Positions 1,896 through 29,154 of a DNA stretch of 29,452 nucleotides are shown here, one piece after another. Under the pieces are notes generated by a model that worked only from the letters and a program-made list of their open reading frames with translations, was not told the DNA's origin and did not search any database. A program made the translations under genes and the position numbers. Origin of the DNA: a virus (taxonomy: Duplodnaviria > Caudoviricetes); the IMG/VR virus record IMGVR_UViG_3300020308_000006, positions 1 through 29,452 of that record, one strand, 5' to 3'. Position 1 is the first letter of the stretch. Every line of letters begins with the position of its first letter.

Positions 1896-2290
1896 TGCCA
1901 CGTAAAGGCAAGGGATCTAAAACCCAAGCTATTCAAACAGCCAAAGATCAAACGTACGGGTCTGCTAAACAACAAGAAATGGCACAAGAAGTTGCGCCAC
2001 TTCCACAAAATGTAGCAGGTATGGGAGAACCAACAGCGTTGCCTCCTAGCAGAGTAATGCCCGGTAGCGCAGGTGATTTGTTTAGAACTACAGATCGTCC
2101 AATGGAACCTTCGTCAGCTATGCCATCGCAAATAAGAGAACCAAAACTTACTCCTGAACGTTCTCAATTGTTGTTCCAAACTATGCCGTTACTGCAAGCA
2201 ACAGCAAATAATCCTTACGCTAACCCAGACATGCAACAAACTGTTTTGCAAATGGAAACGTTTTTACCAACACGATTTGATGCGTCGTGA
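1895..2290 (+). CDS. Hypothetical protein (131 aa), basic N-terminus, Pro/Gln/Met-rich; possibly virion-associated
   Basis: TAATG overlap with the portal stop and GTGA overlap with the next gene; N-terminus MPRKGKGSK. Confidence 0.7.
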   Translation: MPRKGKGSKTQAIQTAKDQTYGSAKQQEMAQEVAPLPQNVAGMGEPTALPPSRVMPGSAGDLFRTTDRPMEPSSAMPSQIREPKLTPERSQLLFQTMPLLQATANNPYANPDMQQTVLQMETFLPTRFDAS

Positions 2291-5200
2291 GTTTTACCGG
2301 TCGGCTTTACAACATTTTTAGAGCGCCTGTTGATTTTGGTGCGCAAGCTGCTGATCTTTTTGTTGACACTATTCGACTAGCTGACGATGAAGAATTCAGT
2401 GTTTTCGAAGCGTTTAACGAATCGTGGAAAGACAACATACTAGGAAAAATGAGCGCATCTAATCAAGGTGTCGCTGGGCGTTCAGTAATAGGTTCTTTCT
2501 TTGGCCCGGATACTGGTATTGGTGCAGCAGTCGGGGCAATCCCTGAAAGTATAAGAGAAGAACCAGCCGCTGTTTGGAACCTAACAATGGACGGTTTCAA
2601 TTACGCAATTAAAAACTTTGTTGACCGGCCTATCGGCACAATGGTCACAATGGCAAGCCTTAACCCGTTTGAGGCTAGAGACCCTGTAACTGGTATGCGT
2701 ACAGGTCGTGGGTTTAACACCAAAATTTTTGATTATGGCACATGGCAAAATGCTTGGGAACTAACAAACGACAGAAGCGCTGGTCAAGCAATCATGCTGT
2801 TTTCTGGTCATGTAGATATTTTAAATCCAACTTCTGTAGAAGAATTTAAACAAACACCTAAGTACCAGTTTGTTTCCGGCATTTTTGATGCTGGCATTAA
2901 CGTTGTTGGAGACCCAGCTTATGCGGGCATTAAAATTAGCAGAACTGCATTTAATATTAATAGAGCTAAAAAAGCTCGTCTTGATCCAGACAATGTAGGT
3001 AAAGATTTATTTCCTGAAAAACAACTTGAATATATAGATATTGATGGGTCAGGTAACCCAGTTCCTGTTTACAGAGTTCAACCCGGGTTATTGCCAAATG
3101 AAAGCATGGGGCCTTTTTACGAACAAGTACGTCCACCTGTAAGAAATCAACCAATTATTGTTCGCACACCTACAAGAGAACCAATTCGTATTGGTGGACA
3201 AAAACTGCATGAAAAAATTCAACAGTTTGAAGGGAAGTATCCTTACCTTGAAACGTTGTTAGGCGGCAGTGTTTTAGACATGCTTACTATTGGCGGTGGC
3301 AAAGTCGTAGGCAGCACACGCTCTGTTGATTCTTTGTTGTTTGAAAAATTTGATTACCAACCTGCGTGGATGGACAATATCCCAGAACCACGAGATATTT
3401 TTGATGCAGCAACAGTGCCTATCACTAAAGAGTTGCAGCAAATTGTTATTAATGAAACAAATAACTTAGCTCTTTATGGCATAAGACCTTCTGCAACCTA
3501 TTTGCAAACAGGTGATCTCGGAGCAGCCCCACAGTTTGGACCTGATTTAAACAATGGAGGCTTAGTCCCTGCAATAGAAATTGCTAGTCGCAGCAATGTT
3601 CTTGGCGAAACAAGTCCAATATTTGACACTGATGCTTCGATAACAGAATTTCTCGAAAGAGAAGGTGCTGCTGATCCTAGTGATCCTTTCCCAGTTTCTT
3701 TAGCTGAAGGCGATGTCACCCCGGTTACAGACGAAGTACGTGTTAACTATCAAGCATACAAAGCTGCGTATGACACTTACGACTTAGACGTTTTAGCTCT
3801 ATTAAATCGTGACGAAATTGTTAATGAAGTAACTGCTGGGTTAAGAGGATACGGCGTCAATCTTGATTTTAATTTTAAAGATGATGTTTACCGTCAAGCA
3901 AAACGTGACTTTGAAGCAGCGATATATAGAAACGAACTTCCTTACGATACAAACGTTGATTTTAATGTTGAAGCTGCTATAGCCCGAATTAATGGTGAAT
4001 TAGTAGAAGCAGCAGATGCGTACAAACGACAATTTGACAACGAAATATATAGGCCTGACAACGTAGATACAGACCCTGAAGAGTTCCGAAGAGCCGAAGC
4101 AGAATTAGAATTAGCAGAAGATGGTTTATACGCTATTGCTGAACAACGGTTGCAATTAGAACTTTATGCAGCACATATTGATACTGTTTTTGGGCCATTA
4201 GAAAAAGTTAAAAACAGTCTTCAAACAATGAAGAAAGTTCCAAGCACAGGCTTAGATCAGTTTTACGGCACTGGGCTTTGGAATATAAATAGAAACAACG
4301 CTGCCCAAGAAATTATAGCTTTACGTATTTTTCAAAAAATGCCACAGTGGGGTCCAGCGTTTAAACATATGACGCCTGAAGAACGATGGCAATTGTCAAA
4401 AGTTTATGCAACATTAGCTAACGCTGCACCTGTAGATAGTTCTGCTTGGTTGCCGTTCCACAACTTTATTCGTTATGTAAATGGCAACGTTGCTGTAAAA
4501 GAAGCAATGCACGCACAGTTAAAAGAAATGTCGCATCTTTGGAGTTTGTTGCGACGTGTGCCGGGCCCAATAAAAGATCAATACAACAGATTCCCTGACG
4601 AATTTGATTATGACTGGCGTACAAGTTTAGGAGAAATGGATGAAACGCCGGGGCCAATGGCTGAGTTCCCAGCAATACTTGAACGCCCTACATCTTTACA
4701 CTGGCATTTTTCAGAACTAGGTCGTGTAAGAAAAGAAATAGCGTCATTTGATGCTCACAGAAAAAACATGGGACAAGCAATGGGGGAGATGGCCGCAGAT
4801 GATGCGTTCCAGCAAGGACGTGCAGCGTCTCTTGAACCTACTGCGATTCCTGACGAAATAAATCGTTTAGACAAAATTCACGTTGACCACATTATTGATG
4901 TGTTGCTTCAAAAAGAAAAAGCGCACGCTATTTTTATACAGCATTACTTGTTTAGCCCACAAGCTTTAGAAGATATGAGTATCCAAGCAGCGCAATTAGA
5001 ATTGCGAGAAGCATTAGATGCAACTGGCGTTTTAGATGAAGCTATGTACGCAGATGTTGCACCTGAAGATTTAGCTGGAGCTTCAGAAGCGTTACTTGAC
5101 TACGAACAACGGCGTCGTTCTTGGGACGATCCAACAAAAGAAGGCATTGAAAAGTTTAGGACAATGCCTATTAAACCGTTGAACTTGGATGCAGCAGAAA

Positions 5201-8200
5201 TCATTTTAGGTCGATCAGGAGATTCAGAACTTGCTGAATTATTTGATCGTTTACACGAAATGCAAAATTTTCCGTGGCAAGCAGTGCTAGCTGATAACGA
5301 AGGTACTTACAAAAATTTAATGCAAGATGTGTATTCGTTACTTCCAGCGAATCACGATCTTTACAACCCTGAATTAATTGTTAGAGGGACTAGCGACATA
5401 CCTGCTGCTGGTGAATTAAATCCGTTAGTCGATCAACAAGAAAACATGAATCGGCTTCGGAACCATGAAATTATTTCTCCACGGGAAATGCATGAAGCAG
5501 CGATAGATAATCTTTTTCAAACTATTGATTTAGAAATTCCTAGAACAATTGATGGGTTTGATTCAATTCTTAAACCTACGACCAAAGCAGGTCTTGCAGC
5601 ACGAACCTTTTTTGAAAAATCTGGTTTATACGCTGGGTTTACAAATTCACGTGCTTACAAACTGTTTAGTGAAAAAGTTTTAGAAGGCATTATTGATGTC
5701 AATAATAAAAACCAAGTAGTTACAGAACTAGAAAAGTTCTTCCGTGATTTAGAAAGAATTAACGTTTCTAAAATAATGCAAAAGCATCATGGCAGAGCAA
5801 CCATGTTAGAAAGCGGTGAACCACTTTCGTTGCTTGACGTAGCGTTAATGAGTTATCGTTCTAATCTTCCAACATGGGAAGGCATAAGTTTAGATAATCG
5901 ACCAACAGATAAAGGCACGTCGCAACTTTGGGCGGACCAAACGTTGATTGATTTAGTTGATACACCGCCTGAACGGTTAGGTCCTAAACTTGACAGGTTA
6001 ATTAACGGCGTACTTACTGGGTTTGTTGAATCAATAGTTCCTGACAAAAAATTTGACGGGCTCACTTGGACAGGACCAGACGTTCGTTCTAATTTGATAA
6101 CTATTCTTCGAGGCGAACTTTCAGCAGTTAAAAAAATGCTTGAAGAAAGCGCCGACGCTACAGGTAAAAAATACGGCAACGTTGATTTCACAGACGTTAT
6201 TGGGACCAACGAGTTAGGCGAAACTGTTTTTGTTCGCAAACCTATTGCTCCTAGTCAAGTTAGACAAACAGTAATTATGCCACGTATAGATAGGTGGAAA
6301 GATTTAGAACGAGCGTTAATGGGTGATTTCAAATCTATAGAAATTGCCGGGAAACAAATGCAAATAGGTCTTACTCCTGCTCGTGCTACTTTGCGTAACC
6401 TTTTAATGGAAACTCAAAGTACGTGGAAAACAATTAACTTGCTTACACCACGTTGGCAAATGGTTGTAAATATTGATTCGCAACTTCGTTTACAAGCAGC
6501 GCTTGAAACATCATTAGGGGTAGCAAGAATTGGGCCTGCATTTAATACTTTGCAAGCTAGGTGGCTACGCAATGACGGTGTAGACATTCAAGCTATTGTT
6601 CAAAACGAATTGTTTGAAGAACTAGGCGGGTTTGAGCGAATCACCGAAACTCAAAATTCAATGGCTGACATTCAAAGCGAACCTGATCTTCTCGAATTTG
6701 ATCAAGCTGAATATTTTGACAACGTTAAACGCCCTTCGTACGCACGTTTGTTAGAAGAAGAAGCAATTCTTCAACGGCGTAACTTTATTGAAATGGTTGA
6801 CCTTTATTTAGACGATGGTCAAGACATTGTAGAATTTGTAACTGGTGTAATAGAAAAAGAATACGCACGACGGCAAACTAAACGACTTGGCACAGCTACA
6901 GCACTAGGTCTTTATTTTACTGGTCCTGTTGGAGCAGCCGCAGCAGCAGGTGCTTACACTGCTCATAGCCGTACAAGCATAGCTAACGCTGCTCGACGAA
7001 TGGTTGCTGAATCATACGGTATTGCCGCACGTAACGCTGCTTGGGTTTCTTTAAGAGAAGCTGAAGCTGCTGACATGTTTAATTGGTTGGCAGAAAACTA
7101 TCCGGGTCGTTACCAAACAATTAGCGATGACTTATTCGGAGTAGAATCTTTAGATCAACTTATGGAAGAGCCTCAACGCTTTTTCCCTGCCGATAACTTT
7201 TTAGGTACAGCTAACACAACTGAATCTAAAATGTATGCTGCGTTGCTAGCAGAAAAAAATGTATTAGAAGGCGACGATGTAGCCAGTTATATCAATGACC
7301 GTATTTATGAAGAGGTTATTGACCCTTACACAGATGCAGCAAACTTAGGAACTTACACTGCTGTTATACCTGTAAGCCAAATTACAACCGCTGATTTTTA
7401 TAGGAATGCATCAGCAGGCACTCGCAAAATTATTGATGCTCGCATAAACGAATTAAAACGTACTTTAAGTGCACGTGAACAAACTGATATTTTGCGTAGA
7501 TCACAAGAAGGTATTCCTGATTATGCTTTAGAAGGAATCGAAAATTTAGAAGATTTCCTTGGAGACGCTGATCCTATTCTTGCAGAATTAGCGAACATAG
7601 TAAATACGCCAGAGCTAGTACAAAATTTTGAAGTAATAGGAATTGAAAATTTCTATAGTCGTCCGTTAGATGAATTCCCATTTGGTGGTTTAGATGTTCC
7701 ACCAGCAAGTCAAGTTGATTTCTTATCTTCCGAAAAAGCTACTGATTTAATTGGTGAACATTTTACGCTTTTAGATTTAGCAGCAGAAGCTAATCAAGCT
7801 TTTAAAGACCGCAGACGAGCAGCAGAGTTAATTTCTAACAACGTTGAAGCTGTATCTGATTACGATAAAACAGTTGTACAAGGTTTCCAGACAGAGTTTC
7901 CTCACACAGCACAAACGTTTGAACGTGCTGCACAAATTTTAACTGAAGGTGGATTTAGTACAACGCAAATAGGTTCAACTCGGATTGATAGTGCGTTTGG
8001 CAATATACCTTCACAGCAAGAAATTAATCGACGCAATATTTCTGCGAACAACACCGCCCGTATTCAAATACAAGGCGCTAACCATATTCAACGTAGAAAA
8101 GAAAAATTCCAAGGATCTCACCAATACGACTTTATGAATCGTGTTGAACGAGACAGCTTTGTAGCTGCTTACAATGATTTTGCTGACCGTATTTTGTCTG

Positions 8201-10887
8201 CCAAAGGACCAGAAGGTGTAACTGCTGATCGTGATTTTTGGCGGCAATTTATTCGTACACCAAACGCAAATCTTACTGATGCAGAAATTCTGCAATGGTT
8301 ACGCACCGACGGTAGACAAGTAATAGAAAATTGGGTACCTAGAGATCAAACACCAGAAGAGTTAACTAACTTAGTGTTTAAAGCTCGTTACGAATCAATG
8401 AGCCAAGTACCAGCTATTTTGCCGGGGTTTGAAGCTGTTGTTGAAAAATTTCAAGCAGGCACAACAATCACGTGGCAAGCTGACATTGTTCCTGCTTTAG
8501 ATAAACTACAAAAGTTAAGTGATTCTACTTGGGATCAAATTTTAAAAGCGTTTATAGACGACAACGAATTACGTCAAATAGGAGTATCTAGTGGTATCCC
8601 AGCTTTTGACGAAATAACTGGTGTACCTCTATGGGATTCTGCGTTAACAATGTGGGATTCTTTTCGAGATGGCAAAGTATTACGTTGGATTGATGCCACT
8701 GGAAATCTTGACATTGATTTAACGGTAGACCCTGTTCTTCGACGTTTAATGATTGCTTCTTACGAAAGCGCTGCTGAATCTATAATTACGAATACCGGGC
8801 AGTTATCGTTTGACCAAAGAATGACAGCAATGACTGTCGCTAAACGTCGTGACATTGTTGAACAGATTCGTTTATTAGGTGAACGCAATATCAAGTTTGT
8901 AGAAGAAGTTGAAGACGTTGCGTTTCTCAGGTCAGCTTCGCCAGCGTCTATTAAAAACAGTCGCCCGTTACCGGGCGAAGAAGGCTTACGTGATTTTGGA
9001 AGAACTGTAACTGATTCTCAGTTCTTAGATTCAAAACAAACTGCGACTATTTGGGAACGCATAAAACAAAAAATAACTCAACCACTAGAAAACTTAGGCG
9101 AAGTTGAAAGCAGTATGTCACGAGGCGTAATGTACGATGCGCTTTATACAGCAGATGTTATTCGTCGTTTACAACCTTTTAAAGTAGGTGACGCATACCA
9201 CATTTCAGATAAACGTATGTATCAGTTACAAGAAAAAGCACGCAAATGGGCTCGGGTTGAAACAAATAATCAACTTTACGATTTAGCGTCACGTACACGA
9301 ATTGAAGAAATGCTTTGGCTTGTTGCACCTTTCTTTGGCGCATGGCAAGAAGTTCTTGGACGATGGTTTAGTTTGGCGTACGAAAATCCTGTGTTCGTAG
9401 CACGAGGGTTACGACCTTTTGCGCTTCTATCTGGTGAAGACGAAAACGGTCAATCAATTGCAACTTTCCAATTACCAAACATAATCGGTGCAAAAACTGA
9501 AACAGATTGGATTCCGTTTGTCGAATCAGTGGATTGGTTTGGCGATTTAAGCATTCTTTCTGAAATGCCAATGGACTTAAAACTAGGGTCTGGTTCATTT
9601 ATCGCTGCGTTACCGGGAGTGAGCCCTGCTATTACTGTTGGCGCTGGAGAAGCAATCCTTGCGGTACCGTCGTTAGATAAAACTTTAGGGTGGTTAATTC
9701 CTTACGGAATAGCTGAAGGCGACAACACATTTACACGCATATTGTCAAGTTTGTTGCCAGCGTGGACTAAAAATATTGCTCGCAAAGGTTTACTTAACAA
9801 GCTTTATTTAGATGATGACCGTCGCAAAGCTACTGCTGCACGAGTTTTGATTGACATGATGGTTCAATACAACGAGCAAGGCATTGTGCTTCCGACAACT
9901 GGGCAAGCGTTAAAAGATTTTAATGCTGAAGCAAAACGTCGTACTGAAATGATTTATGGCATACGGTCATTGCGTAACTTGGCAGTACCAACGTCAGCGT
10001 TGCAACAGTCGCCTTATTATCCAGTTATTAAAGAGTACTGGAAAGTTCTTGAAGAACATGGGCCAGAAATAGCTGATGCGTACATACTAGAAAATCATTT
10101 TGATATGTGGCCGGCTACTGCCCGTACTCAACTTACGATAGAAGCAATTGCAGGCACACGCCAAGGTCACGAAAATTATGAACTGCATAAACAAGACGCA
10201 ACAGAGTACCAAGAAATAGCTTCGTGGATTATTGGGCAGGTTGGGCCAGAAGAAGTTAAATGGGAATACAACCGGAATATTCGTCGCCTTGAAACTCTTG
10301 AAGGACGTGTAAGACCTTTAACTTTAGGCGAACAATTTGAAGATGCGACTGCTACACAAGGTTGGCGAGAGTGGAAAGATTTCCGTATAAAACTTTATGC
10401 TGATTTAGCGCAACGTAAAAAAGCTGGTTTGTCTGGAGCTATTTCTTCTCATTACGATTTAGTACAAAAACGGCGATCTTTTATTCATAATCTTGGTCAA
10501 CAATTCCCAGCGTGGCATGAAGAGTTTTACAGCACTAATGATCCTTTAAAGGTGCAAAGAACTTTAGCTGGGTTCCGTCATGTTGTTAAAGATCCTGCAT
10601 ATGCAAAACGACTTGATGTTGTGCAAATAGGACAATTTTTAGATTTGCATGATGGTATTGCTAGAGATTTAGAAATGCGTGCTAAAAGTTTTAATAGTTC
10701 TAGATGGGAACGCCTTAGTTATAAAGGCAATGAAGATTTGCGAGTTAGATGGGAACTAGGTATCGCAAAATTATTGTTGCAACCAGACTTTGGAAATGTC
10801 TATGACAGGTTCTTTAGTAATATAGAAACAGTTTCTGTTGGAAATAGCCCGTTGCGTGAACCAGCAACACTTGGGAGCGCAAGATAA
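2287..10887 (+). CDS. Very large putative internal virion / DNA ejection protein (2866 aa)
   Basis: Uninterrupted 8.6-kb ORF in the structural operon; acidic and helical; hydrophobic Gly/Ala segment near aa 1535-1557; no tape-measure-like repeats or recognisable polymerase motifs. Function inferred from size and synteny. Confidence 0.65.
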   Translation: MSFTGRLYNIFRAPVDFGAQAADLFVDTIRLADDEEFSVFEAFNESWKDNILGKMSASNQGVAGRSVIGSFFGPDTGIGAAVGAIPESIREEPAAVWNLTMDGFNYAIKNFVDRPIGTMVTMASLNPFEARDPVTGMRTGRGFNTKIFDYGTWQNAWELTNDRSAGQAIMLFSGHVDILNPTSVEEFKQTPKYQFVSGIFDAGINVVGDPAYAGIKISRTAFNINRAKKARLDPDNVGKDLFPEKQLEYIDIDGSGNPVPVYRVQPGLLPNESMGPFYEQVRPPVRNQPIIVRTPTREPIRIGGQKLHEKIQQFEGKYPYLETLLGGSVLDMLTIGGGKVVGSTRSVDSLLFEKFDYQPAWMDNIPEPRDIFDAATVPITKELQQIVINETNNLALYGIRPSATYLQTGDLGAAPQFGPDLNNGGLVPAIEIASRSNVLGETSPIFDTDASITEFLEREGAADPSDPFPVSLAEGDVTPVTDEVRVNYQAYKAAYDTYDLDVLALLNRDEIVNEVTAGLRGYGVNLDFNFKDDVYRQAKRDFEAAIYRNELPYDTNVDFNVEAAIARINGELVEAADAYKRQFDNEIYRPDNVDTDPEEFRRAEAELELAEDGLYAIAEQRLQLELYAAHIDTVFGPLEKVKNSLQTMKKVPSTGLDQFYGTGLWNINRNNAAQEIIALRIFQKMPQWGPAFKHMTPEERWQLSKVYATLANAAPVDSSAWLPFHNFIRYVNGNVAVKEAMHAQLKEMSHLWSLLRRVPGPIKDQYNRFPDEFDYDWRTSLGEMDETPGPMAEFPAILERPTSLHWHFSELGRVRKEIASFDAHRKNMGQAMGEMAADDAFQQGRAASLEPTAIPDEINRLDKIHVDHIIDVLLQKEKAHAIFIQHYLFSPQALEDMSIQAAQLELREALDATGVLDEAMYADVAPEDLAGASEALLDYEQRRRSWDDPTKEGIEKFRTMPIKPLNLDAAEIILGRSGDSELAELFDRLHEMQNFPWQAVLADNEGTYKNLMQDVYSLLPANHDLYNPELIVRGTSDIPAAGELNPLVDQQENMNRLRNHEIISPREMHEAAIDNLFQTIDLEIPRTIDGFDSILKPTTKAGLAARTFFEKSGLYAGFTNSRAYKLFSEKVLEGIIDVNNKNQVVTELEKFFRDLERINVSKIMQKHHGRATMLESGEPLSLLDVALMSYRSNLPTWEGISLDNRPTDKGTSQLWADQTLIDLVDTPPERLGPKLDRLINGVLTGFVESIVPDKKFDGLTWTGPDVRSNLITILRGELSAVKKMLEESADATGKKYGNVDFTDVIGTNELGETVFVRKPIAPSQVRQTVIMPRIDRWKDLERALMGDFKSIEIAGKQMQIGLTPARATLRNLLMETQSTWKTINLLTPRWQMVVNIDSQLRLQAALETSLGVARIGPAFNTLQARWLRNDGVDIQAIVQNELFEELGGFERITETQNSMADIQSEPDLLEFDQAEYFDNVKRPSYARLLEEEAILQRRNFIEMVDLYLDDGQDIVEFVTGVIEKEYARRQTKRLGTATALGLYFTGPVGAAAAAGAYTAHSRTSIANAARRMVAESYGIAARNAAWVSLREAEAADMFNWLAENYPGRYQTISDDLFGVESLDQLMEEPQRFFPADNFLGTANTTESKMYAALLAEKNVLEGDDVASYINDRIYEEVIDPYTDAANLGTYTAVIPVSQITTADFYRNASAGTRKIIDARINELKRTLSAREQTDILRRSQEGIPDYALEGIENLEDFLGDADPILAELANIVNTPELVQNFEVIGIENFYSRPLDEFPFGGLDVPPASQVDFLSSEKATDLIGEHFTLLDLAAEANQAFKDRRRAAELISNNVEAVSDYDKTVVQGFQTEFPHTAQTFERAAQILTEGGFSTTQIGSTRIDSAFGNIPSQQEINRRNISANNTARIQIQGANHIQRRKEKFQGSHQYDFMNRVERDSFVAAYNDFADRILSAKGPEGVTADRDFWRQFIRTPNANLTDAEILQWLRTDGRQVIENWVPRDQTPEELTNLVFKARYESMSQVPAILPGFEAVVEKFQAGTTITWQADIVPALDKLQKLSDSTWDQILKAFIDDNELRQIGVSSGIPAFDEITGVPLWDSALTMWDSFRDGKVLRWIDATGNLDIDLTVDPVLRRLMIASYESAAESIITNTGQLSFDQRMTAMTVAKRRDIVEQIRLLGERNIKFVEEVEDVAFLRSASPASIKNSRPLPGEEGLRDFGRTVTDSQFLDSKQTATIWERIKQKITQPLENLGEVESSMSRGVMYDALYTADVIRRLQPFKVGDAYHISDKRMYQLQEKARKWARVETNNQLYDLASRTRIEEMLWLVAPFFGAWQEVLGRWFSLAYENPVFVARGLRPFALLSGEDENGQSIATFQLPNIIGAKTETDWIPFVESVDWFGDLSILSEMPMDLKLGSGSFIAALPGVSPAITVGAGEAILAVPSLDKTLGWLIPYGIAEGDNTFTRILSSLLPAWTKNIARKGLLNKLYLDDDRRKATAARVLIDMMVQYNEQGIVLPTTGQALKDFNAEAKRRTEMIYGIRSLRNLAVPTSALQQSPYYPVIKEYWKVLEEHGPEIADAYILENHFDMWPATARTQLTIEAIAGTRQGHENYELHKQDATEYQEIASWIIGQVGPEEVKWEYNRNIRRLETLEGRVRPLTLGEQFEDATATQGWREWKDFRIKLYADLAQRKKAGLSGAISSHYDLVQKRRSFIHNLGQQFPAWHEEFYSTNDPLKVQRTLAGFRHVVKDPAYAKRLDVVQIGQFLDLHDGIARDLEMRAKSFNSSRWERLSYKGNEDLRVRWELGIAKLLLQPDFGNVYDRFFSNIETVSVGNSPLREPATLGSAR

Positions 10888-15130: not shown

Positions 15131-16087
15131 ATGGCAACCCCCTCAGTAACAACTTCAACTCTGGACGATCAGGTACAGGCTGCGTTCGATCAGGTTGCGT
15201 ATTTCGCTTTGCGTTCGCAACCATTGTTCGAAATGGTCGCTGACGTTCGTTCGACAGCACAGAGCCACAACGGTTCTAGTGTTAAATTTACTTTCCTAGC
15301 CGATCTTGGGCAGGCCACTACAGCGCTTACGGAAAACGCTGATGTGACAGCACAGGCATTGACTGACAGCCAAATAAACGTAGCTCTTGCAGAGTACGGT
15401 AATGCGGTTATCACCAGTGCCAAGCTGCGTGGAACATCATTCCTTAACGTAGACGCTGATGCAGCCAACATTGTTGGTTACAACATGGCTGACTCAATGG
15501 ATAAAATTGTGTCTGATGTTGCCAATGGCAGCACCGACGCCAATCAAATTATCCATTCGGGCCAAACAAGCCGTGGCGCAATCACAGCTACTGATAACTA
15601 CACTGCTGCGTTAGGCAGGCAAGCCGTAGCTAAGTTGCGGACTGCTAACGCTCCCGGTTGGGAAAACGGCAACTATATGGCAATTATTCACCCTGATGTT
15701 TCTTACGATCTTCGTGGAGATACAGCGGTGACTGACGTTGTTAACTACCAGTTGTACCAAGAAGGAGGCCCAATTCGTGCAGGTTCGATTGGTACTTTCA
15801 ATGGCATCGAATACATTGAGAACCCACGTGCCGGTTTAATCGCCGACGGTGGTTCCGGTAACGTCGATGTTTACCAAACCCTTATCTGTGGCCGTCAAGC
15901 GCTTGCAAAAGCGCATTCACGTGCCCCCGGATTTGGCGCTGACCCAAGCATTGTTGTTGGTCCTGTGACTGACACCCTGCGTCGGTTCAATCCAATTGGC
16001 TGGTACCACCTAGTCGGATACGGCATCTTCCGTGAAGCATGCATGGTCCGTGTGGAAGCAGCATCAACAATCGGAGCTAACTCCTAG
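15131..16087 (+). CDS. Major capsid protein (HK97 fold, N4-gp56-like family), 318 aa
   Basis: Motifs LAEYGNAV, IIHPDVSYDLR, GSIGTFNGIEYIE, DTLRRFNPIGWY; more C-ending codons than neighbours, as expected for high expression; double TAG TAG stop. Confidence 0.9.
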   Translation: MATPSVTTSTLDDQVQAAFDQVAYFALRSQPLFEMVADVRSTAQSHNGSSVKFTFLADLGQATTALTENADVTAQALTDSQINVALAEYGNAVITSAKLRGTSFLNVDADAANIVGYNMADSMDKIVSDVANGSTDANQIIHSGQTSRGAITATDNYTAALGRQAVAKLRTANAPGWENGNYMAIIHPDVSYDLRGDTAVTDVVNYQLYQEGGPIRAGSIGTFNGIEYIENPRAGLIADGGSGNVDVYQTLICGRQALAKAHSRAPGFGADPSIVVGPVTDTLRRFNPIGWYHLVGYGIFREACMVRVEAASTIGANS

Positions 16088-16105
16088 TAGTTAGTTTTAG
16101 AGATC

Positions 16106-16146
16106 GCAGAGGGGTCGGGTTTTCCCCCTTTCCCCGGCCTCTCTGC
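16106..16146 (+). terminator. 14-bp hairpin after the capsid gene with a pyrimidine (anti-SD-like) loop; probable terminator or 3' stabiliser
   Basis: GCAGAGGGGTCGGG / CCCGGCCTCTCTGC (two G-U pairs that form on the + strand); loop TTTTCCCCCTTTC; followed by TCTTCTCT rather than a clean U-tract. Confidence 0.7.
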
Positions 16147-16153
16147 TCTTCTC

Positions 16154-16162
16154 TGCTATCAT
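16154..16162 (+). promoter_or_regulatory. Extended -10 element positioned for a leaderless transcript
   Basis: TGcTATCAT ends 7 nt before the ATG at 16170; no SD upstream of that ATG. Confidence 0.55.
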
Positions 16163-16169
16163 TTCAATC

Positions 16170-16271
16170 ATGCCTACAGTTAACGGAAAAAAGTACGCCT
16201 ATACCGCTAAAGGTAAAAAGGCTGCTGCTGCTGCAAGAAAGAAAAAAAAGAATGCAAAAACCAAGCGGTGA
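16170..16271 (+). CDS. Small highly basic protein (33 aa)
   Basis: MPTVNGKKYAYTAKGKKAAAAARKKKKNAKTKR*; below the ORF-track cut-off; resembles the MPxVxGKKxxYTxKG basic peptides often seen near capsid genes of aquatic phages. Confidence 0.75.
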   Translation: MPTVNGKKYAYTAKGKKAAAAARKKKKNAKTKR

Positions 16272-21274: not shown

Positions 21275-22073
21275 TGCCCCCGGCAAAGTTAACACTGGAC
21301 GACCACTCAAACCGTTCGGAATAGTTGTTCACCACACTGCTTCAAACCGTAACGCAGACCCAGACAACGTAATCGCAATGTGTGTACGAGGAGTCAACAA
21401 AGTCCCCGGACCTTTGTACAACTACATCATCAAACGTGATGGCACCATTGTTAAGTTAACTGCTGAGAACGTGAAAGCTAACCACGCTGGACGAGGGTTA
21501 CAAGCTGTGTTGACACGGATGCAGCAGAATAACCCTGTTACTGGTGACGCTACAAGCCCCGGTAAAATTAGCGCTAACTCTCGTTTAATAGGTGTTTCTC
21601 TTATTAATGACGGGTTAGGGGAAGACATACCCGAGACTCAGATGGACGCACTTGTAGAGTTGTGCGCTTTTCTGTGTGACGGGCATAACTGGAACCCTGA
21701 CTGTGCTGTGATAGGTCACAAAGAATGGACTTCACGCAAAGTAGATCCTTCGTTTTCAATGAGTGAACTACGAGGAATGATCCAGCGACGCATGGTAACT
21801 AGCAGTCCTGTAATGACTTTGCCTAAAGAACCAGAAGATGGACTTGTTCCGTTCCCCGGAACACTCCGTAAGGGCTCACGTAGCCAAGCAGTTGTTCATG
21901 TTCAACGAGTAGTGGGAGCTTTAGCCGACGGAATATTTGGGCGTGGTACACTCGCCAAAGTAAAACAATGGCAACGGGTTAAAGGACTTGTTGCAGATGG
22001 CATCGTTGGTCCAAAGACTTGGGCGGCTATGCAGATACGGAGACAAGAAGTTGTTCAACCAGCGTTTTATTAA
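21261..22073 (+). CDS. Endolysin: N-acetylmuramoyl-L-alanine amidase (Amidase_2) with a C-terminal peptidoglycan-binding domain
   Basis: IVVHHTAS, ANHAG, VIGHKEW..RKVDP zinc-amidase motifs; LRKGSR..V..VQ..ADGIFG..T..V..WQ..GLVADGIVGPKTW is PG_binding_1-like. Confidence 0.92.
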   Translation: MKLIDAPGKVNTGRPLKPFGIVVHHTASNRNADPDNVIAMCVRGVNKVPGPLYNYIIKRDGTIVKLTAENVKANHAGRGLQAVLTRMQQNNPVTGDATSPGKISANSRLIGVSLINDGLGEDIPETQMDALVELCAFLCDGHNWNPDCAVIGHKEWTSRKVDPSFSMSELRGMIQRRMVTSSPVMTLPKEPEDGLVPFPGTLRKGSRSQAVVHVQRVVGALADGIFGRGTLAKVKQWQRVKGLVADGIVGPKTWAAMQIRRQEVVQPAFY

Positions 22074-22254
22074 AGATACTTTAGAACGTGCTGTCGCTAC
22101 TTTCGCTCAGGCGTGGGTAGCTGCTATGGCAGTTCCCGGTCCAGATTGGATGGACTCATTGAAAGTTGCAGGGGTTGCAGCCCTTGTTGCTATGGGTAAA
22201 GCTGTTGCTGCTCGAAAAGTGGGAGATCCTGAAACAGCCTCAGTTACTAGCTAG
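22051..22254 (+). CDS. Holin, r1t-like family (67 aa from a TTG start)
   Basis: FIKDTLERAVATFAQAWVA...DW..SL.VAGVAALVAMGK with two hydrophobic segments; GGAG at 22039-22042, 8 nt before the in-frame TTG at 22051; overlaps the endolysin end by 23 nt. Confidence 0.85.
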   Translation: MFNQRFIKDTLERAVATFAQAWVAAMAVPGPDWMDSLKVAGVAALVAMGKAVAARKVGDPETASVTS

Positions 22255-22271
22255 AAAGATGAGGCTGTCCG

Positions 22272-23330
22272 GTGCCGTCCCCTGCTGTCAATCCGTACAA
22301 CAAAGATGAGATTGAATACCAAGAGCCGGGGTTCGACTACGCCCCAAAATATCCGGGCACTTACGACTATAACGAAAGTGGCATTCAATATAGAGAAGCC
22401 AACTTTCCTTACCAGAAACGTGATGCAACTGTATTTGCTAGCACGGTTGCGTGTTCAGCAGATTTAGCGCCTACGTTTGTATACGTTTATACACCTAAAC
22501 GTCCGGGCGGCGTAGCGTATAGGTCAGGTTATGACTACAACAAGACCGGGTTCGATTACAACGAACGTGACACCTCGGTATCCGACAACCGTGTCTTGGT
22601 GGATTACAGCCAGTCGGGTGTTAGTTATTCTCAGTCTGCCGATGTTGGTCATACTGTGGCGGCGATTGCGACGCCACCCACAATCGGTGTTACGACGACG
22701 TTTTCGGCAAGCCCGTCGGTCCCGGCAACGGTTACTCTTGGATCAGCAATTGAGTGTCCAGTTGTAATTATTCCGGGGGTTGAAGCACAAACAATTGTTG
22801 TTGATGGTGGCACTACAGTACCAGCAGCTATACCTGATGTTACTTCTGAAGCGATCGTTCTTCCCGACGAAGTTGCGGCAGCAGCTACTGTTGGTGATAC
22901 TGTCACTCTTTACATTACGGTTGACGCTGCACAAGATGACTCGCTTGAAAGAACTGCGACAATACCAGCAGTTACACCAAGCAGTAATTACACAGCATTG
23001 CCAGACGCTATCGCTGCTACAAGTTCAATATCTGTTGTCACTATGTACCAGTTAGTTGTAATACCTACTGAAAATATTGTGCCTTCTGTTGGTCGAAGAG
23101 AAGACGCTTCACCTGCTGCGTATGCTTTAATGCGTCACTATAGTCCCGGCGCTAGAGGAGATAATATATTTATTATCAATGGGACTACTGTTCAAAGTTA
23201 TTTACCTGCTGATTGGGGCACAGTCACACGGTGGATATACGGCGGACACGAAAGCCCAAAAGATTTAACAACAGAAGAAGAATCCGTTTTACTTGCAGCG
23301 GGTTATTCATTCAGAGTAGGACCAGAATAA
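22272..23330 (+). CDS. Virion structural protein with Tyr-periodic motifs and ~21-aa beta-strand repeats (352 aa)
   Basis: GTG start with GAGG SD; Y-x6-Y-x6-Y motifs in aa 9-119; imperfect repeats in aa 131-257; C-terminal YGGH..T.EE..L.AAGY domain. Confidence 0.6.
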   Translation: MPSPAVNPYNKDEIEYQEPGFDYAPKYPGTYDYNESGIQYREANFPYQKRDATVFASTVACSADLAPTFVYVYTPKRPGGVAYRSGYDYNKTGFDYNERDTSVSDNRVLVDYSQSGVSYSQSADVGHTVAAIATPPTIGVTTTFSASPSVPATVTLGSAIECPVVIIPGVEAQTIVVDGGTTVPAAIPDVTSEAIVLPDEVAAAATVGDTVTLYITVDAAQDDSLERTATIPAVTPSSNYTALPDAIAATSSISVVTMYQLVVIPTENIVPSVGRREDASPAAYALMRHYSPGARGDNIFIINGTTVQSYLPADWGTVTRWIYGGHESPKDLTTEEESVLLAAGYSFRVGPE

Positions 23331-26559: not shown

Positions 26560-27315
26560 GTGGCTAAAACTCTATTTTTTGATATAGAAACAGCACCGAA
26601 CCTTAGCTATGTGTGGGGTCAATGGCAACAAGATGTCATCGAGCACGCCAGAGAGTGGTACATCATATGTTTCTCATACAAATGGGAACACGAAAAGAAA
26701 ACACACGTTGTATCTTTAGACGACTTTGATCTCTACAACGAAGATCCTGAAAACGATTTCGATGTTGTTTACAAACTCTGGCAATTATTAGACGAAGCAG
26801 ACATAGTGATAGGCCATAACTCAGACGCATTCGATATTAAAAAAGCCAACGCACGTTTTGTTTACCACAACTTTGGACCAACTGGTCCCTATCAAACGGT
26901 TGACACATTAAAAATTGCACGTAAACATTTTAAATTTAACAGCAACAGACTCGGACATCTCGGGGAACACCTTGGACTCGGGGGAAAAGAAACCACAGGA
27001 GGATTTCAGACATGGGCAGGTTGTATGAAGGGTGAAGCTAAAGCGTGGGGGACAATGAAGAAGTATGCCAAACAAGACGTAGATCTGTTGGTAGATGTTT
27101 ACGAACGGTTGCGTCCGTGGATGACAAACCATCCAAACAGAAATGTAATTGATTCAACTTCTCGTCATTGTCCTACATGTGGCAGCGACAGGTTACAAAA
27201 ACGTGGGGTTCGATGTACCCGGACGATGAGTTATCAAACATATCAATGTCAACGCTGTCGTTCTTATTGTAGAGAAAGACTAACTAATAGCTCTGCACGT
27301 CCTGAAGTGGTTTAA
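26560..27315 (+). CDS. DEDD-type 3'-5' exonuclease (RNase H-like, RNase_H_2/YprB-like) with C-terminal zinc ribbon
   Basis: ExoI DIETAP, ExoII GHNSDAFD, ExoIII YAKQDV; CPTCGS...YQCQRC; GTG start with AGGGG SD. Confidence 0.85.
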   Translation: MAKTLFFDIETAPNLSYVWGQWQQDVIEHAREWYIICFSYKWEHEKKTHVVSLDDFDLYNEDPENDFDVVYKLWQLLDEADIVIGHNSDAFDIKKANARFVYHNFGPTGPYQTVDTLKIARKHFKFNSNRLGHLGEHLGLGGKETTGGFQTWAGCMKGEAKAWGTMKKYAKQDVDLLVDVYERLRPWMTNHPNRNVIDSTSRHCPTCGSDRLQKRGVRCTRTMSYQTYQCQRCRSYCRERLTNSSARPEVV

Positions 27316-27479
27316 TCAAAGTTGTAATTGCGAGGCAAAATATATTCAGGCTCTATTAGCCAAGCCTCATACCTTGCTTTACATTTTTTGCAACGACAAC
27401 CATTAAGTAAATACGTAGCTATGAAACCATGCGTTTTAAAATCTGACTTTTTCCAAGGAGGAAAGTCAGAGATATGCAT
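27312..27479 (-). CDS. Small zinc-binding protein (55 aa, HG..Y..GCRC..C motif)
   Basis: MHISDFPPWKKSDFKTHGFIATYLLNGCRCKKCKARYEAWLIEPEYILPRNYNFD*; TAATG-coupled to the upstream gene; not in the ORF track. Confidence 0.75.
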   Translation of the reverse strand: MHISDFPPWKKSDFKTHGFIATYLLNGCRCKKCKARYEAWLIEPEYILPRNYNFD

Positions 27480-27649
27480 TAGTAATCTTCAGGGTTAGAC
27501 GCTTCGTCCTTAAAAATATTAGCCATACGTAAAGCTTCTTCTTTAGTGCGATACCACTCACGCATGTGACTGTCACAAATTACTGCGTAACCGGGAACAC
27601 TGAGCCCTGCGCCTATTCGTGCTACTAGCTTTTGTACTTTAACATCCAT
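27479..27649 (-). CDS. Hypothetical protein (56 aa)
   Basis: Start moved to the ATG at 27649 (MDVKVQKL...), which has a GGAG SD; the longer track ORF runs through a hairpin and a promoter. Confidence 0.65.
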   Translation of the reverse strand: MDVKVQKLVARIGAGLSVPGYAVICDSHMREWYRTKEEALRMANIFKDEASNPEDY

Positions 27650-27677: not shown

Positions 27678-27686
27678 ATTTTACCA
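27678..27686 (-). promoter_or_regulatory. Extended -10 promoter element
   Basis: The minus strand reads TGgTAAAAT about 30 nt upstream of the 27649 start and just downstream of a strong hairpin. Confidence 0.55.
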
Positions 27687-27709: not shown

Positions 27710-27755
27710 TGGAGCGCCTTGGAGAGAAAGGAGAGTAAAACTCCAAGGCACTCCA
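27710..27755 (-). terminator. 15-bp hairpin with an anti-SD-like loop; probable terminator or 3' stabiliser
   Basis: Minus strand TGGAGTGCCTTGGAG-ttttactctcctttct-CTCCAAGGCGCTCCA; the one non-Watson-Crick position is a U-G pair only on the minus strand; begins 2 nt after the stop of the 128-aa gene; no U-tract. Confidence 0.7.
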
Positions 27756-27757
27756 GC

Positions 27758-28144
27758 CTATTTCAAATCTTCTCGTAGACTACGGAGTCGCTTAGTGTTT
27801 TCCTCAATCGACAGCGATTCTTTTTTGTTTAACTCTAAAGCTTTCTGAGTACTAATAATACTTGCAACGTTACTATGGGTTGCAGCTTCCTTGTCCGTCT
27901 CTTGTATGCGCTTCAGTGCTGTCTCAAAGCCTGCTGCACTAAAGCTCCATGTAACATGCAGAGCCCTATAGCATTCTTCTAACGACCAGCCAGCAGCATG
28001 AGCAGTCTCAACAACATGCCGAATCTTCATTGGCTTTGCACCGAACGGTTTCTTATCTAAGTTTTTCCACCAAAAGTTCAGCATCTCAGCAACTGTTTTA
28101 AACTTCGGTATTTGTGGGACATTCAACGCTGTCACTGTGCCCAT
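27758..28144 (-). CDS. Hypothetical helical protein (128 aa), possibly replication-related
   Basis: AAGGAGAG SD at 28150-28157; lies in the recombination/replication module; no clear catalytic motif. Confidence 0.6.
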   Translation of the reverse strand: MGTVTALNVPQIPKFKTVAEMLNFWWKNLDKKPFGAKPMKIRHVVETAHAAGWSLEECYRALHVTWSFSAAGFETALKRIQETDKEAATHSNVASIISTQKALELNKKESLSIEENTKRLRSLREDLK

Positions 28145-28484
28145 TCATTCTCTCCTTAATTAGCTGCGCAAACGTATGCATTTCCATAACAACATACGCT
28201 GCACCTGTTCCATAGTTACGTCGCTTAACTAATGCTGCACCAAATGTAGCGTCAGCATTTACACGTTCTTGCTCTGTCTCCTTCATTATTTCAGATAAAG
28301 AAGACAAAGCATCCTTCCTGTTTTTGCATTCAAACACAAATTCAGGAAGGTCGAGACACCGAATATCCCCAATATCTTTAGTTCCCATAAGCGGAAGTCT
28401 CATAAACTCTCGCTTTGTGTAGCTCTGAAGATACCTGACACACTCGGTTTCCCAAGCAGTCCCCTTCTGTTTAGCTTTACTCAT
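28098..28484 (-). CDS. Holliday junction resolvase (Hjc-like PD-(D/E)xK nuclease)
   Basis: MSKAKQKGTAWE..V..L, DIGDI and VFECKN motifs; next to SSB and the annealase. Confidence 0.85.
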   Translation of the reverse strand: MSKAKQKGTAWETECVRYLQSYTKREFMRLPLMGTKDIGDIRCLDLPEFVFECKNRKDALSSLSEIMKETEQERVNADATFGAALVKRRNYGTGAAYVVMEMHTFAQLIKERMNGHSDSVECPTNTEV

Positions 28485-28759
28485 ATGTTCCCGATGTCAG
28501 GAGGAATTGTTTCCTCAGTTTCTTCCATGTAATCAAGATACTCAGTCATAGCTTGTTGAAATATAAAAGACATAGCTTGCATCATTTGGTTATTAGAATC
28601 CATGTTCCCACTAGCAGGGTGCTTTTCAAAAGCTTCAATAATTCTAAGTGCCTGCATTTCAACACGAGATTGAAAATCTTTAGGCACAACAAATGTCATT
28701 GTTGTAATACTGTCTGCCAGTATCGGAATGATAAAGCTGTACTGTCCTTCATTGTCCAT
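28481..28759 (-). CDS. Hypothetical protein (92 aa)
   Basis: TAATG-coupled to ssb and ATGA overlap with the resolvase; acidic. Confidence 0.65.
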   Translation of the reverse strand: MDNEGQYSFIIPILADSITTMTFVVPKDFQSRVEMQALRIIEAFEKHPASGNMDSNNQMMQAMSFIFQQAMTEYLDYMEETEETIPPDIGNI

Positions 28760-29154
28760 TAGAAAGGCTCCGTGTCATCCGCAAAAGCTGCTTGCACAGT
28801 GTTAACTGCGCCCTGATCTCTTACATTATCACTTGCGTTCCCCTTAGGATGCCAGCGATATGAGGGCCCACCTTCGTCTGCATATAGACACAGTTTGCTA
28901 CGTTTTTCACCTTCTTTAGTTTCCCAATTGTCTTGTTTCATGCGACCAGTAAACATCACACGAGAACCTTTAGACAGTTCTGAAATGCGTTCAGCAAGAT
29001 CACCAAAACATTTGACATCAAACCAATGGGTCTCTTTAGAATCGTCACGACCTGTAGTTACAGCCACAGGCACAGTGACAAACGCATTACCTGCTTGCGA
29101 GTAACGCAACGTCAAATCAGAACCAACGTTACCTGCAATAGAAATATTACTCAT
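28759..29154 (-). CDS. ssb: Single-stranded DNA-binding protein (131 aa)
   Basis: ISIAGNVGSD..LRY, WFDVKCFGDLAE, KGSRV..GRMKQ..WE..GEKRS OB-fold motifs; ADEGGPSYRW resembles actinobacterial SSBs; acidic DDTEPF tail; start moved to the ATG at 29154 with a GAGG SD. Confidence 0.93.
   Translation of the reverse strand: MSNISIAGNVGSDLTLRYSQAGNAFVTVPVAVTTGRDDSKETHWFDVKCFGDLAERISELSKGSRVMFTGRMKQDNWETKEGEKRSKLCLYADEGGPSYRWHPKGNASDNVRDQGAVNTVQAAFADDTEPF

Follow-up and report, generated by a model that had tools for sequence, protein, structure and literature searches.

The minus-strand hairpin at positions 27710 to 27755 of the window (the whole stretch of DNA analysed here, which is a complete virus record of 29,452 bases) is a real conserved element of RNA type, and its loop core, UCUCCUU, complements AAGGAGA, the principal ribosome-binding site (RBS) of early genes in this phage family. 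We lean towards the reading that the hairpin is an antisense loop at the 3' end of an mRNA, where it would damp the phage's own early translation. The computed basis for this reading comprises the fold, the conservation with compensatory changes, the strand bias, the complementarity to early RBSs, the scarcity of such sites on the late strand, and a second matching pair of loop and RBS in cultured Streptomyces BF phages.

The plus strand of the window carries late-type genes (a major capsid gene, an endolysin of amidase/peptidoglycan-binding type and an exonuclease), and the minus strand, entering from the right, carries early-type genes encoding an Erf-like protein, SSB and a RusA-like resolvase; the labels early and late were inferred from gene function and strand. 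The features around the hairpin are as follows.

27312-27479, minus strand: 55-aa gene, coupled to the 56-aa gene and following it
27479..27649, minus strand: conserved 56-aa gene, with the SD GGAGA at 27660-27656
27678..27686, minus strand: conserved extended -10-like site TGGTAAAAT, 3' of the hairpin; predicted promoter for the next two genes
27710..27755, minus strand: hairpin, with 5' arm 27755-27741, loop 27740-27725 and 3' arm 27724-27710
27728..27734, minus strand: loop core UCUCCUU, complement of AAGGAGA
27758..28144, minus strand: 128-aa gene, the last gene before the hairpin, with its stop 2 nt before the stem
28098-28484, minus strand: RusA-like resolvase, early strand
28150..28157, minus strand: RBS AAGGAGAG that precedes the 128-aa gene; predicted target closest to the loop (8 bp, -12.3 kcal/mol)
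28481-28759, minus strand: gene with no function assigned, early strand
28759-29154, minus strand: SSB, early strand
29147 to the window end (29452), minus strand: Erf-like annealing protein, early strand

The 128-aa gene had 28 homologues, none with a Pfam match, and no family was assigned to it; a model of its protein (pLDDT 65) gave no fold match at E<=0.001. The look-alikes found for the 56-aa protein were all unnamed. The closest cultured capsids were those of Streptomyces BF phages (37-40% identity), the sequencing runs associated with the record are marine metagenomes, and an actinobacterial host is plausible. When cellular genomes were searched, the sole match was a contig binned in a Dehalococcoidia MAG. 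One relative (L233), with a capsid 79% identical and a hairpin after the capsid gene as described below, lies on a contig binned with a Dehalococcoidia MAG, and the same MAG also contains the early loop motif (G040:C91:24594); the binning of L233 may be an error, because the endolysin suggests a host with a peptidoglycan wall. Elsewhere in the window, an 11-bp hairpin at 27442-27470, within the 55-aa minus-strand gene and near the convergence of both strands' genes, could end plus-strand transcription; a 198-nt gap after the endolysin (22073-22272, plus strand) apparently contains a short hydrophobic ORF that had not been called and may encode a holin; and the only match of a 2866-aa protein (2287-10887, plus strand), a weak one at its C terminus, was to a PHROG family that lacks annotation.

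As the earlier note had described, the minus strand at 27755-27710 folds into a 15-bp stem (one pair being G-U) with a 16-nt loop, UUUUACUCUCCUUUCU, and the stem starts 2 nt past the stop codon of the gene at 27758-28144. The fold had a z-score of -7.3, with 0 of 200 shuffles folding equally well, and the loop was unpaired with a probability of 0.95 when 480 nt were folded. Among 21 long-stem hairpins in the window, this hairpin and another at 16106-16146 were the top two in stability. The 3' flank reads UCCAUCAUC; there is no U-tract, and therefore a 3' end of the message at the hairpin is a prediction. Neither the short loop nor the U-tract of an intrinsic (L-shaped) terminator was found, and a consensus terminator scan made no call. 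A search of Rfam, which the earlier note had proposed, gave no match to the hairpin at gathering score; apart from one tRNA, the same held for the window, 20 motif loci and 8 related loci, and scans by E-value returned just sub-threshold miRNA-type and sRNA matches.

The earlier note had predicted variable stems and conserved loops among relatives, and this pattern was observed. Orthologues were found by the downstream promoter-like site and leader pattern alone, with the loop not used, which yielded 31 viral loci, 20 of them distinct and one identical to the window. UCUCCUU was present in the loop of a long stem in 20 of 20 distinct loci, and likewise in 3 of 3 further loci; the core was unpaired with a probability of at least 0.92 in 17 of the 20, whereas the inner 5' arm showed a mean identity of 51%. 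In 15 of the 20 loci the hairpin is part of a three-way junction, the first helix of which overlaps the stop codon, and the loop of the second hairpin within this junction is variable. The two subtypes were aligned apart because a joint alignment by sequence only had misaligned the stems. For the three-way-junction subtype (16 distinct sequences, including two extra loci beyond the pattern search), 9 of the 11 pairs in the stem that bears the loop had changed on both sides, and 98.9% of cells could pair; 0 of 500 shuffles matched this, a control that is generous because the structure was derived from the same alignment. In the simple subtype to which the window belongs (5 sequences), 5 of 18 pairs had changed on both sides. 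The pyrimidine strand gave the more stable fold in 20 of 20 loci, and the distance from the loop core to the -10 site ranged from 33 to 44 nt; an RNA structure is therefore favoured over a promoter element. The AAGGAGAG site heads the adjacent gene in 15 of 20 loci, and another gene intervenes in 5 of 20.

The loop had been read in the earlier note as an exact copy of the actinobacterial 16S rRNA 3' tail. The identity over 9 nt is real (by chance, 0.21 occurrences of this 9-mer by itself would be expected per window), but 'exact copy' overstated it: the terminal UCU of the match varies among relatives, and UCUCCUU alone is invariant. Nor is the tail specific to Actinobacteria. The tail used here, GAUCACCUCCUUUCU, was read in two Dehalococcoidia loci and may not be that of the host; a class-level table, as far as it was available, gives the CCUCC core also for Actinomycetia and Acidimicrobiia, and gives AAGGAGG(UGA) as the SD of both candidate host groups (PMC10783764). 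All 20 distinct orthologues carry UCUCC, not CCUCC, where the 16S genes read CACCTCCTT. With U in place of the C of 16S and with its last bases variable, the loop is therefore not a copy of the 16S tail. Pairing with AAGGAGA was stronger for the loop than for the 16S tail (-10.5 versus -9.1), whereas pairing with the canonical AAGGAGG was weaker (-9.6 versus -12.0). We suggest that the loop resembles 16S because both RNAs read the same site.

That the loop complements the SD at 28150-28157 was likewise confirmed (SD AAGGAGAG at 28157..28150), and its ability to pair with SD regions was supported. Gene families with AAGGAGA numbered 7 of 23 early and 0 of 27 late (p=0.002), both lists including some doubtful ORFs. 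Before start codons, AGGAGA was counted 67 times and AGGAGG 12 times on 103 kb of early strand, compared with 0 and 0 on 132 kb of late strand. In another 287 kb from the capsid strand, AGGAGA occurred 8 times, and AAGGAGA was counted 0 times in the 16 loci recounted. The view that late genes have weak sites also held in the window, where AAGGAG was found in 0 of 21 late genes, and the claim of about ten coupled junctions compares with nine TAATG/TGATG overlaps, one GTGA and one ATGA. Over 82 early sites, the loop out-paired the 16S tail at 69. Its edge was modest (p=0.04 and p=0.03 in two comparisons), and these p-values overstate independence because the loci are related. Pairing with the 16S tail was also stronger for early RBSs (-8.9 versus -6.8), and part of the early bias is therefore simply stronger SDs. 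Loop swaps among the marine relatives revealed no fine covariation with RBSs (p=0.25 and 0.18, with the loop of L213 mis-registered).

The strongest evidence that a loop follows the RBS of its phage came from the cultured BF phages FlowerPower, Manuel, Kumquat, Treat, Dennebes, Abafar and JXY1. In 7 of 7, a long hairpin follows the last gene of the very-early cassette, with the loop UG(C/U/A)CUCUCUCCC.

L089:38037-38141, minus strand: BF hairpin
L090:38055-38181, minus strand: BF hairpin
L238:3685-3789, minus strand: BF hairpin
L239:4266-4373, minus strand: BF hairpin
L240:4872-4992, minus strand: BF hairpin
L241:7043-7153, minus strand: BF hairpin
L242, near 30343, plus strand: BF hairpin

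The loop sequence CUCUCUCCC matches the BF phages' own early site GGGAGAGAG, not 16S. Among distinct BF RBSs, GGGAGAGA was present at 39 of the 60 that serve very-early genes, compared with 1 of 21 for middle genes and 2 of 54 for late genes. The margin of the BF loop over the 16S tail was 4.2 kcal/mol at very-early sites, as against 0.4 at late ones. When the loops were exchanged, the BF loop paired better than the marine loop at 45 of 60 BF sites, and the marine loop paired better than the BF loop at 123 of 148 marine sites. This is one contrast between two clades, and it suggests that the loops follow each phage's RBS. As for the anti-SD decoy proposed in the earlier note, the parts that stand are that the loop is under selection and can pair with SDs; the part that does not is its reference to 16S, as the loop tracks the phage's own early RBS. 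The BF hairpin lies at a different position and would be an analogue of the marine one. FlowerPower has other intergenic hairpins in its very-early region, and these form short loops; a term search showed that the available text of the Abafar paper mentions neither hairpins nor motifs (PMC11536984). In the BF phages a small upstream hairpin competes with the outer stem of the long hairpin; the outer stem ends at the SD of the next gene, and together these two features mean that the arrangement could be a switch. The gene downstream of the BF hairpin has GAAAGGAGG, with no match to the BF loop.

The other very stable hairpin of the window lies behind the capsid gene.

15131-16087, plus strand: major capsid gene, late-type
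16106..16146, plus strand: second long-loop hairpin, loop UUUUCCCCCUUUC, 18 nt past the major capsid stop
16154-16162, plus strand: extended -10-like site TGCTATCAT, 7 nt before a predicted leaderless ORF
16170-16271, plus strand: predicted leaderless 33-aa Lys/Ala-rich ORF, absent from the 50-aa ORF list

Its layout is like that of the early hairpin, and its loop is different. Of 80 capsid loci, 77 had this loop together with the downstream TGCTA, and the other 3 end too early. The leaderless start lies 5-9 nt past the -10 hexamer, at 7 nt in 38 of 46 distinct sequences, and one contig from an RNA library (15312-16209) spans the hairpin. Among the contigs listed for 6 sequencing runs, none covers 27710-27755, a result that speaks neither for nor against transcription of the early hairpin. 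With early RBSs this loop was a worse fit than the 16S tail (mean -7.3 versus -9.4). It does contain a 7-nt complement of GAAAGGG, a sequence present at 23 starts on the early strand and at one site on the late strand, the latter recurring in 11 loci. In a separate observation, a 60-kb record (G010) holds two different hairpins of the post-capsid type (L157:13576 and L159:12739), pointing to either a chimeric assembly or duplication of the module.

Hairpins with loops of the CCUCCUUUC type are widespread in phages. In 24 of 32 sequence clusters, a long hairpin presented the CCUCCUUUC pattern with two flanking pairs, compared with 3 of 17 clusters for a scrambled core of the same composition. 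In 25 unrelated phage records with the pattern, AAGGAGG was not dominant (53, versus 66 AAGGAGA; the marine family had 6 versus 51), which is no more than a shift towards AAGGAGG and tells against the antisense reading; the comparison is weak and confounded by GC content, 5 of the 25 having failed the loop-display test and one resembling an SD of the opposite strand. Two recurring multi-hairpin elements with CCUCCUUUC loops were also encountered, one in L093, L095, L105, L117, L120, L125 and L153 near 401, and the second in L106, L118, L121, L129, L135 and L149 near 401; no Rfam match was obtained in the representatives scanned. In L131 and L154 (401-470, plus strand), the loop is complementary to an SD just 20-45 nt downstream, an arrangement that suggests a local pseudoknot or switch.

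In the mechanism that we propose, the early message would end at the hairpin stem, whether terminated there or trimmed to it, and the loop would stay open and pair over 7-8 bp with AAGGAGA(G) sites. It could act in cis, or in trans through a stable 3' fragment that accumulates, working without a chaperone as 6C RNA does. By competing with the 30S subunit, the loop would repress early translation and so help the early-to-late change; expression of the downstream genes would begin anew at the promoter predicted for them, and those late genes whose starts are weak or coupled would be spared. Against this antisense reading stands the shortness of the predicted duplex between loop and RBS, which is just 7-8 bp and would form inside a closed loop. 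We judge it unlikely, if worth keeping in view, that the hairpin is instead a terminator lacking a U-tail or a 3'-end barrier that shields the downstream promoter, with a pyrimidine loop bound by a host or phage protein and its RBS complementarity incidental. Such a role would suit the position of both window hairpins, directly after a stop codon and shortly before a conserved extended -10 site, and the spread of UUU-C(n)-UUUC loops over many unrelated phages (the 24 of 32 clusters above). The post-capsid loop is equally conserved and fits early RBSs poorly, and therefore protein binding stays alive as an explanation. It is opposed by the rarity with which the scrambled core was loop-displayed, by the short loops of FlowerPower's other very-early intergenic hairpins, and by the BF loop, whose sequence has shifted along with that of the BF early RBS.

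A 16S-tail mimic serving as a general decoy on SD-led host mRNAs, from which phage genes with coupled, leaderless or weak-SD starts would escape, appears improbable. The 9 shared nt speak for it, as do the true CCUCCUUUC loops of other phages and the late genes of the window, whose sites are weak (mean -6.5) and nine of which are stop-start overlapped; the loop moreover still pairs with AAGGAGG (-9.6) and AAGGAGGUGA (-13.7), U-G wobble permitting this. On these two sites, however, it is out-paired by the 16S tail (-12.0 and -17.9, respectively), and they are of the kind that the class-level table, in its available part, assigns to both candidate host groups (PMC10783764). Every one of the 20 orthologues has U, not C, opposite the second G pair of GGAGG, the terminal UCU is variable, and nothing in the analysis points to a decoy directed at the host. 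We consider quite improbable a local cis switch, in which the loop would hide the SD (GGAGA) of the 56-aa gene when transcription reads through, or a double-stranded DNA operator in either orientation. The downstream SD is conserved, the predicted promoter would yield transcripts without the hairpin, and the BF outer stem ends at the SD of the next gene, all of which would accord with such a role; but loop and downstream SD form just 5 contiguous pairs, the loop is unchanged in two relatives whose downstream SD is GGAGU, and in the BF phages the GAAAGGAGG of the downstream gene mismatches the loop. The variable spacing of 33-44 nt between core and -10 site and a G-U bias that points to RNA tell against an operator. 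An ordinary terminator with a neutral loop sequence would be in keeping with a strong stem 2 nt past a stop codon; it is largely refuted by an invariant core (20 of 20) on a stem of 51% identity, and the consensus scan does not call the hairpin a terminator, so that this explanation is very improbable.

The antisense reading can be compared with several known systems. The cuckoo sRNAs of Alphaproteobacteria are host-encoded and consist of repeated CCUCCUCCC-loop modules, with anti-SD-like sequence in hairpin loops. The phage element resembles them in displaying such a sequence in a hairpin loop, and it was rejected as a member on account of its single UCUCCUU loop, the lack of repeated CCUCCUCCC loops and the lack of an Rfam match. 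The sequence UCCUU is presumably a MazF site; the nuclease-decoy idea based on it was unsupported in the available text of the one review searched. A closer parallel is the 3'-UTR of icaR mRNA in Staphylococcus aureus, in which, according to the text available, a pyrimidine motif pairs with the SD region and blocks initiation; icaR is one chromosomal gene with one cis target, and cleavage by RNase III was shown experimentally (PMC3868564). The phage loop similarly lies past a stop codon and complements the SD of the same message, over 8 bp with 28157-28150. Unlike icaR, the phage element has a covarying stem and complements a whole class of early RBSs, a relationship predicted from the sequence. 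The 6C sRNA of high-GC Gram-positive bacteria was described, in the available part of its source, as pairing with many mRNAs through pyrimidine loops and without an RNA chaperone (PMC6486639). Pairing of a pyrimidine loop with many mRNAs is what is proposed here, and the host group may be the same; the difference is that 6C is a host sRNA with several C-rich loops, whereas the phage element is a 3'-end element with one UCUCCUU loop. The 6C model of Rfam gave no gathering-score match in the window or in 8 related loci and was not among the 8 weak matches. Membership in 6C was rejected, as the hairpin has one U/C loop in place of several C-rich loops.

The start-associated sequences (SAS) of cluster K mycobacteriophages and cluster EF Microbacterium phages were also considered. 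In the available text of papers from 2011, 2020 and 2024, SAS is an extended, standardised RBS of non-structural genes only, a 13-bp motif of which K1 phages have one copy in reverse; the authors allowed for an RNA or a protein as its partner, stated that its role was unknown, and described no antisense hairpin (PMC3203893, PMC7302621, PMC11373665). A term search of the available text of PMC12699233 gave no mention of antisense or hairpins. Like SAS, the motifs described here overlap RBSs and are confined to non-structural genes (7 of 23 versus 0 of 27 families in the marine group, 39 of 60 versus 2 of 54 sites in BF phages), but the marine motif is looser and 7-8 nt in length, versus 13 bp. 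In Anaya and Angelica, the sole reversed SAS lies in a predicted 10-nt loop, with z just +0.3 and -1.6; the Anaya anti-SAS hairpin was lost in a wider fold, and the same loose test also placed 24 of 62 forward SAS sites in loops. No anti-SAS loop was found in Pixie and TM4. The reversed SAS of Anaya and Angelica (L243:31871 and L244 near 30635, plus strand) is situated in a stretch free of genes that follows a hairpin of terminator-like form, and upstream there is a long conserved hairpin, common to Pixie, which is a candidate non-coding RNA. Phage loops antisense to their own early RBSs were not described in the literature searched, which comprised titles and the opening lines of abstracts and included few subscription journals.

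On balance, we favour regarding the hairpin as a phage variant of loop-mediated SD masking, a mechanism known from host RNAs, and the proposed 16S mimic is more aptly described as mirroring the early RBS of the phage itself. More tentatively, many phages might combine a standardised, slightly non-canonical early RBS with its mirror in an mRNA 3'-end hairpin loop, forming an RNA-only, one-to-many early-to-late switch; this might explain the SAS of actinobacteriophages, and the capsid-linked loop of the marine phages may cover GAAAGGG early sites late in infection. If this is true, one conserved loop set against a shared early site would constitute a protein-free timer of the infection cycle, and the matching pair of loop and RBS in cultured Streptomyces phages makes the SAS question open to simple mutant tests.
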